DNA from: Caloenas nicobarica
Lineage: Eukaryota
Assembly: GCF_036013445.1 (NCBI RefSeq)
Contig: NC_088282.1
Span: forward strand, 133,631 to 197,630
Length of the DNA stretch: 64,000 nt
Direction of reading: 5' to 3'
In this document: positions 4,730-38,000 of the stretch, piece after piece
Position numbering within the stretch: position 1 is the stretch's first letter
How the letters are laid out: each line of letters starts with the position of its first letter
Translations under genes and position numbers: made by a program
The notes under the pieces: model-generated
What the model was told of the DNA's origin: nothing
Seen by the model: the letters and a program-made list of their open reading frames with translations, nothing else
The model's database searches: none

Positions 4730-4849
4730 CTGGGGGCGTCGGCTGCTGCGGCTGCGCCGGGCGGGGCCGGGGCGGGGCCGGGGTGGGCGGGGCCCGTCGG
4801 GCGGGGCCAGAATCTCATTGGGGAACGGGCTGAACGGGGGCGTGGCCAC
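4730..4849 (-). CDS. INO80E: INO80E exon 6. Encodes VATPPFSPFPNEILAPPDGPRPPRPRPGPARRSRSSRRPQ.
   Basis: Matches human [34 protein letters not shown]. Acceptor ccccccccag, donor cag|gtccgt. Phase 0 in and out. Confidence 0.6.
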
Positions 4850-4889
4850 CTGGGGGGGGGGGGCGGGGTCAGCTGGGGACACGCCCCCC

Positions 4890-5210
4890 CCCCCCCCGCT
4901 GCGATTGGCTGGAGAGGGTGGGGGGAGCCCAGACCACGCCCCCTCGCTGGGATTGGCTGGAGAGGGTGGGGGAGCTGAGACCACACCCCCTCACTGGGAT
5001 TGGCTGGGGGAAGAGGGGGCGGAGCCGGGGGGGGGGGGGGAGACCACGCCCCCCTCGCTGCCATTGGTTGAGGGTGAAGGGGGTGGAGCCACGCGGGGGG
5101 GGGGCAGACCACGCCCCCTCACTGGGATTGGTTGGGGGTTGGAGGGGGCGGAGTCACAGGGGGACTGGGACACGCCCCCTCGCTGGGATTGGCTGCGGGT
5201 AAAGGGGGCG
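4890..5210. repeat. Tandem repeat of about 62 bp (about 5 copies). Each unit carries gggattggctgg, an inverted CCAAT box.
   Basis: ccacgccccctcgctgggattggctggagagggtgggggagc repeated inside an INO80E intron. Confidence 0.7.
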
Positions 5211-14999: not shown

Positions 15000-16880
15000 A
15001 TTCGTTTGCGTCGAGAATCGAATTATTTACCTCAAAAATTCAATTGTTTACCTCAAAAGATGAATGATTTACCTCAAAAATCCAATTGTTTACCTCAAAA
15101 GATGAATTATTTACCTCAAAAATTCAATTGTTTACCTCAAAAGAGGAATGATTTACCTCAAAAATCCAATTGTTTACCTCAAAAGATGAATTATTTACCT
15201 CAAAAATCCAATTGTTTACCTCAAAAGATGAATGATTTACCTCAAAAATCCAATTGTTTACCTCAAAAGATGAATTATTTACCTCAAAATTCAATTGTTT
15301 GCTTCAAAAGATGAATTATTTACCTCAAAAATTCAATTGTTTACCTCAAAAGATGAATTATTTACCTCAAAAATCCAATTGTTTACCTCAAAAGATGAAT
15401 TATTTACCTCAAAAATTCAATTGTTTACCTCAAAAGATGAATTATTTACCTCAAAATTCAATTGTTTGCTTCAAAAGATGAATTATTTACCTCAAAAATC
15501 CAATTGTTTACCTCAAAAGATGAATTATTTACCTCAAAAATCCAATTGTTTACCTCAAAAGATGAATTATTTACCTCAAAAATCCAATTGTTTACCTCAA
15601 AAGATGAATTATTTACCTCAAAAATCCAATTGTTTACCTCAAAAGATGAATTATTTACCTCAAAAATCCAATTGTTTACCTCAAAAGATGAATTATTTAC
15701 CTCAAAAATTCAATTGTTTACCTCAAAAGATGAATTATTTACCTCAAAGATCCAATTGTTTACCTCAAAAGATGAATTATTTACCTCAAAATTCAATTGT
15801 TTGCTTCAAAAGATGAATTATTTACCTCAAAAATTCAATTGTTTACCTCAAAAGATGAATTATTTACCTCAAAAATTCAATTGTTTACCCCAAAAGATGA
15901 ATAATTCAGCTCAAAAAACGAATTATTTACCTCAAAAGTTGCGTTATTTATCTCAAAAATCGAACTGCTTACGTTAAGACATCAACTGTTTCCCTCAAAA
16001 ATGGAATTATTTATCTCAAAAATTCAACTGTTTACATCAAAAATTAAATTATTTACCTCAAAAATTGAATTATTTACCTCAAAAACTGAGCTGTTCACCT
16101 CAAAAACTGGATTATTTACCTCAAAAATTAAATTATTTACCTCAAAAATTGAACTATTTGCCTCAAAAAATGAGTTGTTTGCCTCAAAAATGGGATTGTT
16201 TCCCTCAAAAAATGGATTATTTACCTCAAAAAATGAGTTATTTACCTCAGAAACTGAGTTGTTCGCCTCAAAAATTGCACCGTTTGCCTCGAAAAAATGG
16301 ATTATTTCTCTCAAAAAATGGATTATTTAGCTCGAAAGTTGAATTATTTGCCTCAAAAACAAAGCTATTCACCTCAAAAATTGGATTGTTTGCCTCAAAA
16401 ATGGATTATTTACCTCAAAAAATCAGCTATTTGCCTCAAAATTGAAATATTTACCTCAAAAATTGAATTATTTACCTCAAAACCTGAATTGTTTCCCCCC
16501 AAAATTGAATTATTTACCTCAAAAAATAAACCACCTCCAAAATTCAACTATTTACCTCAAAAACTGAACTATTTGTCTCAAAAATCGAATTATTTGCCTC
16601 AAAGCCTGAGCTGTTTGCCTCAAAAATTGGATTATTTACCTCAAAAAATGAGTTATTTACCTCAAAAAGTGAGTTGTTTGCCTCAAAAATGGAATTATTT
16701 ACCTCAAAAAACGAACTGTTCGCCTCAAAAATTGAATTATTTACCTCAAAAATTGAATTATTTACCTCAAAAACTAAGCTGTTTGCCCCCAAAAATGGAT
16801 TATTTACCTCAAAAAATGAATTATTTGCCTCAAAAATTGAATTATTTGCCTAAAACTGGGAACAGGGGGGATACCGGTGT
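15000..16880. repeat. AT-rich 21/42-bp satellite, about 45 dimers. It starts about 30 bp upstream of the PAGR1 start codon.
   Basis: tacctcaaaagatgaattatt + tacctcaaaaatccaattgtt repeated. The variant distal half is tacctcaaaaattgaattatt. Confidence 0.9.
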
Positions 16881-20677: not shown

Positions 20678-20756
20678 GTAACGAGGCGGGGTGGGGGGCG
20701 GAGGGAGGACCCAGGCGTCCGGGCCCCACGGATCTGTGGGTCTCTGTGCCCCATAG

Positions 20757-20858: not shown

Positions 20859-20859
20859 G

Positions 20860-21700
20860 TGAGCGACCCACAAGTGTGGGGCTGGACCCAGAAGTGTGGG
20901 GCTGGACCCATAAGTGTGGGGTGGGGGGGGGTTGGGGCCCAAAACTGGGGGTTTGGGAGCTCAGAAAGGGGGTTGTGGGGTCAGAAATGGGTCTCAAGGG
21001 GTGTTTCGGGACCCAGAAGTGTGGGGCGGGACCCAGAAGTGTGGGGCTGGACCCATAAGGGGGGGGGGGGGGGCCCAAAACTGGGGGTTGTGGGGTCAGA
21101 AATGGGCCTCACGGGGTGTTTCGGGACCCATAAGTGTGGGGCAGGACCCAGAAGTGTGGGGCTGGACCCATAAGTGTGGGGTGGGGGGGGGGGTGGGGCC
21201 CAAAACTGGGGGTTTGGGGGCTCAGAAAGGGGGGTTGTGGGGTCAGAAATGGGTCTCACGGGGTGTTTCGGGACCCAGAAGTGTGGGGCGGGAGCCAGAA
21301 GTGTGGGGCTGGACCCATAAGTGTGGGGTGGGGGGGGGAGTGGGGCCCAAAACTGGGGGTTTGGGGGCTCAGAAAGGGGGGTTGTGGGGTCAGAAATGGG
21401 TCTCAAGGGGTGTTTTGGGACCCATAAGTGTGGGGTGGGACCCATAAGTGTGTGGCAGGGGGGGATTTAGGGCCTAGAAATGAGGGTTGGGGGGACATTG
21501 GGCCCCACAGCTGTGGGGCAGGGGGATGTTGGGACCCATACGTGTGGGGCTGGACCCATACGTGTGGGGCGGGACCCATCAGTGTGGGACGGGGGGGGGG
21601 ATTTGGGGCCTAGAAATGAGGGTTTGGGGGACATTGGGCCCCACAGCTGTGGGGCAGGGGGGATGTTGGGCCCCATAGATGTGGGGCAGGGCATGTGGGG
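20860..21700. repeat. Tandem repeat of about 120 bp (gacccagaagtgtggggctggacccataagtgtggggtggggggg...) in a TAOK2 intron.
   Basis: About 6 direct copies. Confidence 0.8.
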
Positions 21701-21880: not shown

Positions 21881-21977
21881 TGCACAAGAAGCCGCTGCGG
21901 GAGGTGGAGATCGCGGCCGTCAGCCAGGGAGCGCTGCGGGGCCTGGCCTATCTGCACCAGCTCGGGGTCATCCACAG
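21881..21977 (+). CDS. TAOK2: TAOK2 exon. Encodes (V)[31 protein letters not shown](R).
   Basis: Matches human [33 protein letters not shown]. Acceptor ccccaag, donor cacag|gtgcgc. Confidence 0.8.
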
Positions 21978-21989
21978 GTGCGCCCCATA

Positions 21990-23100
21990 GATCTGCCCCA
22001 TAGATCGGACCCATAGATCCGGCCCCGTAGATCGGGAGCCAGAGCGGGACCCACAGCCCCTGTTGTGCTGGTTTCTTTGGGTGTTTTCTTGCTTGTGCTG
22101 CTTGGGGTTGGTTGTTCTGCCCCATAGCGTGCCCCATAAGCTGCCCCATAACCTGCCCCATAGATCAGGACCCATAGATCCGGACCCAGAGCAGGACCCA
22201 CAGCCCCTGTTGTGCTGGTTTCTTTGGGTGTTTTCTTGCTTGTGCTGCTTGGGGTTGGTTGTTCTGCCCCATAAGCTGCCCCATAGCCTGCCCCATAGAT
22301 CAGGACCCATAGATCCGGACCCAGAGCGGGACCCACAGCCCCTGTTGTGCTGGTTTCTTTGGGTGTTTTCTTGCTTGTGCTGCTTGTGGTTGGTTGTTCT
22401 GCCCCATAACCTGCCCCATAGCCTGCCCCATAGGCTGCCCCATAACCTGCCCCATAGATCAGGACCCATAGATCCGGACCCAGAGCGGGACCCACAGCCC
22501 CTGTTGTGTTGGTTTCTTTGGGTGTTTTCTTGCTTGTGCTGCTTGTGGTTGGTTGTTCTGCCCCATAGCCTGCCCCATAGCCTGCCCCATAACCTGCCCC
22601 ATAGATCAGGACCCATAGGTCCGGACCCAGAGCGGGACCCACAGCCCCTGTTGTGCTGGTTTCTTTGGGTGTTTTCTTGCTTGTGCTGCTTGTGGTTGGT
22701 TGTTCTGCCCCATAGCCTGCCCCATAGCCTGCCCCATAGATCCAGACCCATAGGTCCGGACCCACAGCGGGACCCACAGCGTCCGTTCTGCTGGTTTCTC
22801 TGGTGCTTTTCTTGCTTGTGCTTGGCAGTCCCGCCCCATAACCTGCCCCACAGAGCCCACCCCATAGATCCTGCCCCATAGAGTCCACCCTATAGAGCTC
22901 AACGCATAGCGTCCACCCCATAGATCCCGCCCCATAGATCCCGCCCCATAGACCCTGACCCAGGGAGCACACCCCATAGATCCCACCCCACAGAGCCCAC
23001 GGCATAGAGCTGCCCCATAGATCCTGCCCCATAGATCCCGCCCCATAGCGCCCGCCCCATAGAGCCGTACCCCATGAGCCCCCCCACCCCCACTGATCTC
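21990..23100. repeat. Tandem repeat of about 120 bp (about 7 copies), followed by CCCCATAGATCC 18-bp repeats.
   Basis: cagagcgggacccacagcccctgttgtgctggtttctttgggtgttttcttgcttgtgctgcttg...ccccatagatcaggacccatagatccggaccc repeated. Confidence 0.85.
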
Positions 23101-23254
23101 TGCCCCACTGATCTCTGCCCCACACACACGTCAAGGCCGGGAACATCCTCCTGACCCACTGATTCCCCCCCTAGCCCCACTGATCTCAGCCCCACCGACA
23201 TGCCCCGTTCCCCCAGCCCCACAGCGGCTGCCCCACTGATCCCTGCCCCACTGA

Positions 23255-23383
<129 letters not shown>

Positions 23384-23389
23384 TGAGCG

Positions 23390-24000
23390 ACCCCCAAGTG
23401 TGGGGCTGAGCCCCATAGTGCAGCCGGGTGTGATGTTTGCGACCCCCAAGCGTGGGGCTGAGCCCCATAGCGCAGCCGGGTGTGATGTTTGTGACCCCCA
23501 AGCGTGGGGCTGAGCCCCATAGCGCGGCCGGGTGTGATGTTTCCGCCCCCCAAGTGTGGGGCTGAGCCCCATAGCGTGGCCGGGTGTGATGTTTCCACCC
23601 CCCAAGTGTGGGGCCGAGCCTGATGTTTCCGCCCCCCAAGTGTGGGGCCGAGCCTGATGTTTCCGCCCCCCAAGTGTGGGGCCGAGCCTGATGTTTCCGC
23701 CCCCCAAGTGTGGGGCCGAGCCTGATGTTTCCGCCCCCCAAGTGTGGGGCTGAGCCTGATGTTTCTGCCCCCCAAGTGTGGGGCCGAGCCTGATGTTTCC
23801 ACCCCCCAAGTGTGGGGCCGAGCCTGATATTTCCACCCCCCAAGTGTGGGGCCGAGCCTGATGTTTCCACCCCCGAAGTGCAGATCCAGGCCTGATATTT
23901 CCGCCCCCTAAGTGTGCGCCTGGATTTTATGTTTCCACCCCCAAGTGTGGGGCCGGGTTTTATGTTTCCACCCCCCAAGTGTGGGGCCGGGCCTGATGTT
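23390..24000. repeat. Minisatellite of about 30 bp, CCCCCAAGTGTGGGGCCGAGCCTGATGTTTCCG, about 18 copies.
   Basis: A direct tandem array in a TAOK2 intron. Confidence 0.9.
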
Positions 24001-24012
24001 TGTGCCCCCCAG

Positions 24013-35349: not shown

Positions 35350-38000
35350 TTAAACATCCCCCAAATTCATCCTTTTCGGGTTGTTTTTTTCGGGGCACCC
35401 ATGGGTGGGGGGCACCCAATGGGGACCCAACGATCGCCCAACAGGGACCCGACGCGGAGCCGAGAGCAATGAGCCAATGGGGAGCCAGAAATGGCTGAGG
35501 GACCCAACGATGAGCCAATGGGGACCGAGAGGTGGGTGAAGGGACCAATGGGGACCCAGCCATGAGCCGGTGGCCAATAGGGAGCCGGCGGGGTCTTGGT
35601 GGGGACGCGGGGGACCAATGGGGAGCAAGAGGTGGGCGAGGGAACCAATGGGGACCCAACGATGACCCAATGGGAGCCAACGGCCAATGGGGACCCAACG
35701 ATGACCCAACGGCCAATGGGGACCCAACAATGACCCAACGGCCAATGGGGACCCAACGATGACCCAATGGCCAATGGGGACCCAACATTGACCCAACGGC
35801 CAATGGGGACCCAACGATGACCCAATGGCCAATGGGGACCCAACAATGACCCAACGGCCAATGGGGACCCAACGATGACCCAATGGGAGCCAATGGGGAC
35901 CCAACGTTGACCCAATGGGACTCAATGGGACCCAACGATGACCCAATGGCCAATGGGGACCCAACGATGACCCAACAGCCAATGGGACCCCACGATGACC
36001 CAACGGCCAATGGGGACCCAACGTTGACCCAATGGGACTCAATGGGACCCAACGATGACCCAATGGGCAATGGGGACCCAACGATGACCCAACGGCCAAT
36101 GGGGACCCAATGATGACCCAATGGGGACCCAACGATGACCCAATGGGAGCCAATGGGGACCCAACGATGACCCAACGTTGACCCAATGGGACTCAATGGG
36201 ACCCAACGATGACCCAACGGCCAATGGGGACCCAACAATGACCCAATGGGACGCAAGGGCCAATGGGGACCCAATGGGGTCTTGATGGGGACGTGGGGAC
36301 CCAATGGGGACCCAACGATGACCCAATGGGGTCTTGATGGGGACATGGGGACTCAATGGGGATCCAATGGGGTCTTGAAGGGGTCTTGGGGACCCAATGC
36401 AGACCCAACGTTGACCCAATGGAGACCAAGAGGGGGGTGAAGGACCCAATGGGGACCCAACATTGACCCAACAAGGACCCAATGGGGGCTTGGGGACCCA
36501 ACATTGACCCAATGGGGACCCAACGGGGTCTTGATGGGGACACGGAGACCCAATGGGGTCTTGGTGGGGTCTTGGGGACCCAACAGTGACCCAATGGAGA
36601 ACAAGGAGTGGGTGCAGGACCCAATGGGGACCCAACATTGACCCAATGGGGACCCAATGGGGTCTTGGTGGGGTCTTGAGGACCCAACAATGACCCAACA
36701 TTGACCCAATGGGGACCAGGAGGTGGGTGAGGGACCCAATGGGGACCCAACGATGACCCAGTGGGGTCTTGCTGGGGACATGGGGACCCAACGATGACCC
36801 GACAAGGACCCAATGGGGTCTTGGGGACCCAACAATGGCCCAACATTGACCCAATGGGGACCAGGAGGTGGGTGAGGGACCCAATGGGGACCCAACGATG
36901 ACCCAACGGGGTCTTGGGGACCCAACGATGACCCAGTGGGGTCTTGGTGGGGTCTTGGGGACCCAACATTGACCCAACGGGGTTTTGGGCACCCAACAAT
37001 GACCCAACATTGTCCCAATGGGGACCCAATGGGGTCTTGATGGGGTCATGGGGACCCAACGATGACCCAACGATGACCCAATGGGGTCTTGGTGGGGTCT
37101 TGGGGACCCAATGGGGACCAGGAGGTGGGTGAGGGACCCAATGGGGACCCAACGATGACCCAACATTGTCCCAATGGGGACCCAACAATGACCCAGCAAG
37201 GACCCAATGGCCAATGGGGACCCAATGGGGTCTTGATGGGGACATGGGCACCCAATGGGGACCCAACGGGGTCTTGGGGACCCAACGGTGACCCAACGAT
37301 GACCCAATGGGGTCTTGGTGGGGTCTTGGGGACCCAATGGGGTTTTGGGCACGCAACAATGACCCAACATTGTCCCAATGGGGACCCAATGGGGTCTTGA
37401 TGGGGACATGGGGACCCAACGATGACCCAACGATGACCCAATGGGGTCTTGGTGGGGTCTTGGGGACCCAATGGGGACCAGGAGGTGGGTGAGGGACCCA
37501 ATGGGGACCCAACGATGACCCAATGGGGTCTTGGTGGGGTCTTGGGGACCCAACGATGACCCAATGGAGTCTTGGGGACCCAACAATGACCCAACATTGT
37601 CCCAATGGGGACCCAACAATGACCCAGCAAGGACCCAATGGCCAATGGGGACCCAATGGGGTCTTGATGGGGACATGGGCACCCAATGGGGACCCAACGG
37701 GGTCTTGGGGACCCAACAATGACCCAATGGGGTCTTGGGGACCCAATGGGGACCCAACATTGACCCAACAGGGTTTTGGGCACCCAACAATGACCCAACA
37801 TTGTCCCAATGGGGACCCAATGGGGTCTTGATGGGGTCATGGGGACCCAACGATGACCCAACGATGACCCAATGGGGTCTTGGTGGGGTCTTGGGGACCC
37901 AACAATGACCCAACATTGTCCCAATGGGGACCCAATGGGGACCCAACGATGACCCAACGGGGTCTTGGGGACCCAACAATGACCCCAAACGTGTGGGGTG
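35350..38000. repeat. Satellite of about 21 bp, GACCCAATGGGGACCCAACGAT, more than 100 copies over about 2.6 kb.
   Basis: gacccaacgatgacccaatggccaatggggacccaacaatgacccaacggccaatgggg repeated. Confidence 0.9.

Follow-up and report, generated by a model that had tools for sequence, protein, structure and literature searches.

A partial copy of TAOK2 exon 6 in a minisatellite-filled intron of the Nicobar pigeon: a probable single-copy exon stutter

A fragment resembling the start of a protein kinase exon lies just 5' of the exon itself in a 64-kb stretch of DNA (64,000 nucleotides, hereafter the window) from the Nicobar pigeon, Caloenas nicobarica. Its presence raises three questions: whether it is a true duplicate of the exon, by what route it arose, and whether it could take part in splicing. 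A previous reading, made from the letters of the window alone (the sequence-only reading), had described a recent local tandem duplication of part of a TAOK2 exon that created a decoy, namely a non-functional pseudo-exon without an acceptor AG.

The kinase-domain exons were found by tblastn with a human TAOK2 query, and their borders were placed at canonical AG/GT dinucleotides. These exons lie on the + strand between 20420 and 28138. The resulting ten-exon model has canonical AG/GT sites and an intact kinase-domain reading frame, and all 333 aa of its translation are identical (100%) to the NCBI serine/threonine-protein kinase TAO2 of Caloenas nicobarica, for which the Pfam domains PF00069/PF07714 have been precomputed. 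Given this identity, the window contains the Nicobar pigeon TAOK2 gene, which encodes a STE20-family kinase, and the gene assignment made in the sequence-only reading is borne out. Exon 5 (21881-21977, + strand) ends in ATC CAC AG followed by gtgcgc, and gives the first two bases of an Arg codon that is finished by exon 6 (23269-23382, + strand). Exon 6 contributes (R) plus 38 residues, comprising the catalytic-loop and DFG segment (...KLGDFGS...GTPYW) and including the DVKAGNIL sequence previously read from it, and ends in TTG before the donor gtgagc. Since exon 5 ends in CAC AG|gt and exon 6 begins with A GAC GTC, the acceptor used is the AG at 23267-23268.

A repeat search and MAFFT alignment showed that positions 23088-23157 match positions 23231-23300 over 70 nt without a gap, with 65 of 70 bases identical (93%) and a start-to-start offset of 143 nt. 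This block is the full extent of the similarity between the two copies, with nothing alike beyond it in the MAFFT alignment. The homology runs from 38 nt 5' of the acceptor to 32 nt into exon 6, that is, across the intron-exon junction, such that in each copy the first 38 nt are intronic (two CCCCACTGATCTCTG units, CCCCAC and two further bases) and the last 32 nt are the exon start. The five mismatches, given as copy/source, are T/C at 23099/23242, which sits within a repeat unit, and C/G at 23125/23268, 23127/23270, 23150/23293 and 23155/23298. Within the 64-kb window the exonic 22-mer ACGTCAAGGCCGGGAACATCCT occurs at 23128 and 23271 only, where 0 occurrences are expected, and no match to it was found in 100 dinucleotide shuffles even with 3 mismatches permitted, which rules out chance similarity. 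The flanking 15-mer CCCCACTGATCTCTG was found in the same window, at up to 1 mismatch, only at 23088, 23103, 23175, 23231 and 23246; one more site, at 20724, appears at 2 mismatches. The upstream segment is therefore confirmed as a genuine duplicate, local and partial, of the junction at the exon 6 acceptor. The sequence-only reading was right about its presence and about its divergence after some 30 nt of exon, and needs correction in extent (23088-23157 in place of 23090-23165) and in spacing (an offset of 143 nt rather than 130 nt).

The source of the intronic part (23231-23268, + strand) contains the 15-mer 2.6 times, with a branch-point-like CTGAT in every unit, and runs into the true acceptor ...CCCCACAG. 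Its homologue in the copy (23088-23125, + strand) consists of two CCCCACTGATCTCTG units plus CCCCACAC, with C at 23125 in place of the acceptor G at 23268. The exon-derived part (23126-23157, + strand; ACACGTCAAGGCCGGGAACATCCTCCTGACCC) corresponds to bases 1-32 of exon 6 and carries G>C at 23127, 23150 and 23155. Overall, the copy thus holds 2.4 intronic 15-mers, an acceptor region in which AGAG has become ACAC, and ~30 nt of exon. The real junction reads CCCCACAG|AGACGTC and the copy reads CCCCACACACACGTC, with both G's of AGAG replaced by C (23125 and 23127). No AG is present at the homologous acceptor position (CCCCACACAC in the copy where the true acceptor is CCCCACAGAG), as had been noted previously. 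Past ...CATCCTCCTGACCC the copy passes directly into the repeat-like sequence ACTGATTCCCCCCCTAG..., and an in-frame TGA follows at 23160-23162, right after the exon-derived part. The only GT dinucleotides in 23088-23268 are those of GTCAAG (23130) and GTTCCC (23207), both unlike a donor, so that no donor-like GT was found in this interval. A hypothetical splice of exon 5 to the homologous position would give a product that runs into this stop. No match to the remainder of exon 6 was found near the copy by blastn-short. Between the two copies is a 73-nt spacer (23158-23230, + strand) of degenerate 15-mer-like units, with AGs at 23173, 23188, 23215 and 23223, which lies outside the duplication.

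Pseudoexons and decoy exons of the classical kind carry a plausible splice site on either side, 3' and 5'. The TAOK2 fragment is similar to these in being exon-like sequence within an intron near a real exon, but differs from them in having neither splice site and in deriving from duplication of the neighboring exon rather than from chance motifs. Assignment to a functional decoy or pseudoexon class, which requires an AG, a polypyrimidine tract and a bounding GT, was rejected because the copy has ACAC for AGAG and no donor-like GT; the term "decoy" in its functional sense is not supported for an element with no splice-site pair. Judged from these features, the copy could not serve as a defined exon, and its use would be harmful. 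Most likely it is inert and spliced out together with the rest of intron 5. The description as a non-functional pseudo-exon therefore appears sound as regards the lack of function, given the missing acceptor AG, the missing donor and the in-frame stop.

The sequence-only reading missed the repeat context of the duplicate. Tandem repeats called by TRF cover 75% of the window, 91% of intron 5 and 99% of intron 6, and 70-99% of the TAOK2 introns longer than 600 nt; coverage of kinase-domain exons 1-9 is 0%. Intron 5 (21978-23268) holds a higher-order repeat of 135-159 nt and an array of 14-mers, after which come the 15-mer units. The 14-nt minisatellite array (unit TCCCGCCCCATAGA, ~17 copies; 22829-23087, + strand, with the TRF array extending to 23063) fills the 3' part of the intron up to the insertion site. 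On the other side of the exon, the arrays of intron 6 (a 52-mer ×4.5, then a 34-mer ×12.5; 23387-24011, + strand) begin 4 nt past the exon 6 donor. The copy is real, yet it is ordinary for repeat-filled DNA of this kind.

Exon stuttering, or sequence stuttering, has been described for genes on chicken dot chromosomes (Genome Biol Evol 2026;18:evag038, PMC12954441). In that study, exons were compared with introns by blastn-short without dust, and matches in the adjacent intron were retained at a length of at least 20 and a score above 42.1 bits, the maximum of the shuffled controls. [quoted passage not shown] In Caloenas, bases 3-29 of exon 6 matched 23128-23154 over 27 nt at 96.3% identity with a blastn-short score of 46.1 bits, above the 42.1 threshold, and the best of 20 shuffles reached 24.3 bits. 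This was the only proximal-intron match among exons 1-10, no other TAOK2 exon fragment being found in the introns by blastn-short for these ten exons. Matches to exon 10 were discarded as candidate intronic fragments, as they represent a low-complexity GPAHP-coding repeat elsewhere in the window.

As in the chicken cases, a lateral part of a coding exon has been copied together with the adjacent splice-site region into a neighboring intron that is GC-rich and made up almost entirely of imperfect local tandem repeats, and the real exon is unchanged. By contrast, there is one extra copy rather than a median of 4, and the copied acceptor AG has been destroyed, where the chicken study stresses potential alternative splice sites (PMC12954441). 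Species and gene also differ, and TAOK2 is not named in the text of PMC12954441 or in two of its text supplements. By its bit score, its location in the adjacent intron, its span of the junction and the repeat cover of its host intron, the TAOK2 fragment fits the published phenomenon. The surroundings also resemble those reported for zebra finch dot chromosomes, where tandem repeats make up >70% of intron sequence, the minisatellite units measure 10-30 nt and G4 motifs occur alongside them (bioRxiv 10.1101/2025.10.17.683159; 10.1101/2025.10.14.682431); the long TAOK2 introns are similarly repetitive, and C-run/G4 motifs flank the insertion. Those reports deal with composition and not with copies of exon fragments, and the G4 motifs of TAOK2 intron 5 lie on the template (-) strand, in contrast to the coding-strand excess in zebra finch introns.

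The copy is very probably a single-copy exon stutter that arose as a templated insertion of ~67-70 nt within the repeat array, for which we infer a template-switch or mis-aligned repair mechanism. Deleting 23088-23154 in silico leaves an ordinary repeat unit, ...GAGCCCCCCCAC|CCCACTGATTCCC..., across the join. CCCCAC stands at the start of the insert and CCCAC just after its end, the exon reads CTGAGCCC where the switch would have occurred, and both edges fall within C-run clusters with CCCAC microhomology on the flanks. The left edge lies in a cluster at 23070-23091 (+ strand; CCCCATGAGCCCCCCCACCCCC), which a regex scan identified as a G-quadruplex motif on the - strand, and the right edge in a cluster at 23155-23178 (+ strand; CCCACTGATTCCCCCCCTAGCCCC) that becomes contiguous with 23070-23087 once the copy is removed. 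The position of the insertion in a C-run/G4 cluster is a hint and no more, since G4 motifs cover ~10% of intron 5 and both edges of the copy represent one pre-insertion site, such that p is ~0.1; no significant association of the breakpoints with G4 motifs is claimed.

Under the proposed model, the event would have taken place during repair or replication inside the C-rich minisatellite of TAOK2 intron 5. A nascent strand ending in a CCCCAC unit would mis-pair with the last repeat units beside exon 6, synthesis would run for ~67-70 nt, past the acceptor and through ~30 nt of exon, before the strand returned to the array at a short CCC/CCCAC microhomology. The outcome would be an intronic fragment 143 nt 5' of the real exon. 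Four G>C changes would have been gained during the event or later, two of which abolish both acceptor AGs. Microhomology-mediated template switching in minisatellites and mis-aligned synthesis-dependent repair, including templated insertions of the polymerase-theta type at G4 sites, form a recognized class of event. The TAOK2 copy resembles these in being a short, local templated insertion with 3-6 nt of microhomology (CCCAC/CCCCAC) in an array with G4 potential, although the mechanism rests here on a single junction. For chicken, it has been proposed that stuttering stems from replication stress where DNA is G4-prone or from non-crossover resolution of a mis-aligned strand invasion, and a template-switch or templated-insertion route is named as a possibility (PMC12954441).

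An alternative closer to the sequence-only reading is a plain head-to-tail tandem duplication of a 143-bp unit, half of which was later overwritten by minisatellite turnover. The two copies are indeed direct repeats at a fixed offset of 143 nt, and arrays in such introns turn over fast: intron 5 of Caloenas and that of Columba livia cannot be aligned with each other, and stuttering introns in chicken are highly length-polymorphic (PMC12954441). However, only 70 of the 143 nt are homologous. In local alignments, the 73-nt spacer scored 21 against 23015-23087 (shuffle mean 17.4; 67 of 500 shuffles as good) and 16 against 23301-23373 (99 of 500 shuffles as good). The other 73 nt of the supposed unit rise above shuffles in neither phasing, whereas the retained 70 nt keep 93% identity. 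Tandem duplication is therefore unlikely and, as the mode proposed in the sequence-only reading, is not upheld.

The age of the templated insertion was approached by comparison with orthologs from Columba livia, the parrot Pezoporus flaviventris and Indicator, the last inspected by eye only. The Columba ortholog has all ten exons, with exon 6 at 16445-16558 of its sequence and 87% identical to that of Caloenas, and the last ~750 nt of its intron 5, next to exon 6, are an array of a related 13-mer, (CCCCACTGAYCYG)n. No second exon 6 fragment was found in Columba, where GGGAACATCCT occurs once and exon 6 scores ≤24.3 bits against its own introns. The introns of Pezoporus likewise contain no exon 6 copy (best exon-versus-intron score, 24.3 bits), and none was seen by eye in the 550 nt 5' of exon 6 in Indicator. 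Pezoporus TAOK2 is compact, with introns 5 and 6 of ~185 and ~85 nt, respectively, which already consist of GCCCCATAG-type units (4736-5120 of its sequence). The motif family therefore predates the large expansions in pigeons.

Exon 6 opens with G in Columba, Pezoporus and Indicator, but both Caloenas copies carry A there. The most parsimonious order of events places the duplication after this Caloenas-specific change, and hence after the Caloenas/Columba split. Given that the real exon carries G, in agreement with Columba and Indicator, at the sites homologous to 23150 and 23155, the C's at these two positions are derived in the copy, as would fit a constrained exon and a drifting fragment. 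The event, previously called recent, is recent in that it follows the split, but only in relative terms, as the copy is already 7% diverged.

Two further explanations were considered. One is an error of assembly or consensus calling, this minisatellite region being difficult to sequence; in its favor are the HiFi coverage drop-outs and difficult assembly of dot-chromosome euchromatin, and the probable 1-nt indel that the Columba model carries in exon 6 as well. Against this, the copy differs from its source by five defined substitutions and its junctions are clean, exon 6 itself is intact and matches the annotated protein exactly, and collapse or expansion errors normally alter the number of identical units rather than place a diverged exon fragment in an array. 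An artefact is thus highly improbable.

The loss of the acceptor AGs bears on the last explanation, that the copy is a functional intronic element, either a true decoy exon or a splicing-regulatory copy of exon 6 enhancer sequence that modulates use of the real acceptor or intron retention. The copy does combine 30 nt of genuine exon sequence with branch-point-like and polypyrimidine units 143 nt 5' of the real acceptor, and two of the five differences fall on both G's of AGAG (p = 0.004 under uniform mutation), which could reflect selection on splicing. All four polarizable differences are, however, G>C, and with the 15 G's as targets the p value for loss of the AGs weakens to ~0.06 by our own calculation, so that AG loss was set aside as a sign of selection. 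Because of this value, and because 29 CCCCAYAG acceptor-like motifs are already tolerated in intron 5, to which one more would be an unremarkable addition, no selection against a cryptic acceptor is claimed. A functional role is further opposed by the lack of an AG/GT pair able to define an exon and by the absence of the copy from Columba, Pezoporus and Indicator. The RNA fold of 23080-23430 is weakly stable and marginally above shuffles (z = -2.36; 4 of 100 shuffles as stable), and a search of the whole window against Rfam at the gathering threshold returned no match to a structured RNA. We regard such a role as very improbable.

A bolder form of the stutter reading would take the locus as a one-step snapshot of the onset of stuttering, in which a single microhomology-mediated template switch in a G-quadruplex-prone C-run cluster was followed by selection that removed the copied acceptor. 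This is speculative and, in our judgment, doubtful. If it were true and general, stuttered exon copies across bird dot chromosomes would systematically lose their splice dinucleotides; instability would then impose a measurable splicing load that could add to gene decay on these chromosomes.

On its own the copy matters little, being in all likelihood a piece of inert exon scrap in a repeat-saturated intron. As a probable exon stutter, it would extend a phenomenon so far described only in chicken to a pigeon, and to TAOK2. With its readable junctions and good preservation, a single copy also documents the initiating event more clearly than do the chicken cases with several copies. For annotation, it serves as a warning that exon predictors and read aligners can be misled by fragments of this kind in GC-rich bird genes.

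Several additional features of the gene were observed. In the annotated 457-aa TAO2 model, the final coding exon (35445-35495) heads a degenerate array of ~2.5 kb made up of GGGACCCAACGATGAGCCAATGGGGA-like units (35410-37960), and both flanks of this exon recur many times downstream. A tblastn search of the whole window returned no exons for the conserved TAOK coiled-coil C-terminus. The 3' end of the model could be artefactual; alternatively, the gene could be truncated or run on past the window. In Columba, exon 6 differs from that of Caloenas by 1 nt in length (115 aligned columns for 114 nt; 16520-16545), and the deposited protein shifts out of frame at this point (...AAPQRSLRGDALL...). 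The difference is probably an assembly indel in a GC-rich stretch.

Other observations concern the repeats themselves. The acceptors of exons 3, 6, 7 and 8 (at 20756, 23268, 24012 and 24300) read TGCCCCATAG, TGCCCCACAG, TGCCCCCCAG and TGCCCCACAG, respectively, and share sequence with the intronic minisatellite unit (CCCCAYAG), such that the TAOK2 introns look like arrays of 3' splice-site-like modules. Introns 3 and 6 open with a common stretch of 26 nt, GTGAGCGACCCNCAAGTGTGGGGCTG (20859-20884 and 23383-23408; 25 of 26 identical, 0 expected), which directly precedes arrays made from it, a 20-mer array at 20865-20921 and the 52-mer array at 23387-23620. Since these two introns share GTGAGCGACCCNCAAGTGTGGGGCTG, repeat seeds are common to non-adjacent introns and are not strictly local.

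Exon 6 also contains (at 23300-23313) the sequence CCTATGGGGCAGGT, the 12-nt core of which, when reverse-complemented, exactly matches the minisatellite unit of intron 5, CCTGCCCCATAG. This core has 11 inverted copies in intron 5 (22152-23034, - strand) and 16 matches in the window, against 0 expected. In Columba, exon 6 reads CCGTGGGGCAGG and the intron unit CCTGCCCCACTG, with ~100 inverted 10-nt matches; a change of GCCGTG to CCTATG (AV>PM) in Caloenas makes the match between exon 6 and intron 5 perfect. A mutation introduced by template switching to the intronic repeat could account for this, as could RNA pairing between intron and exon; statistically the case is weak. Finally, exon 6 is bracketed by partly complementary repeats, CTGCCCCAC... 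on the 5' side (23100-23125 and 23243-23267) and GTGTGGGGCTGAG on the 3' side (23398-23423, and in the 34-mer array to 23856), with arms of 13-26 nt that are 72-92% complementary and that could pair across the exon in the pre-mRNA.
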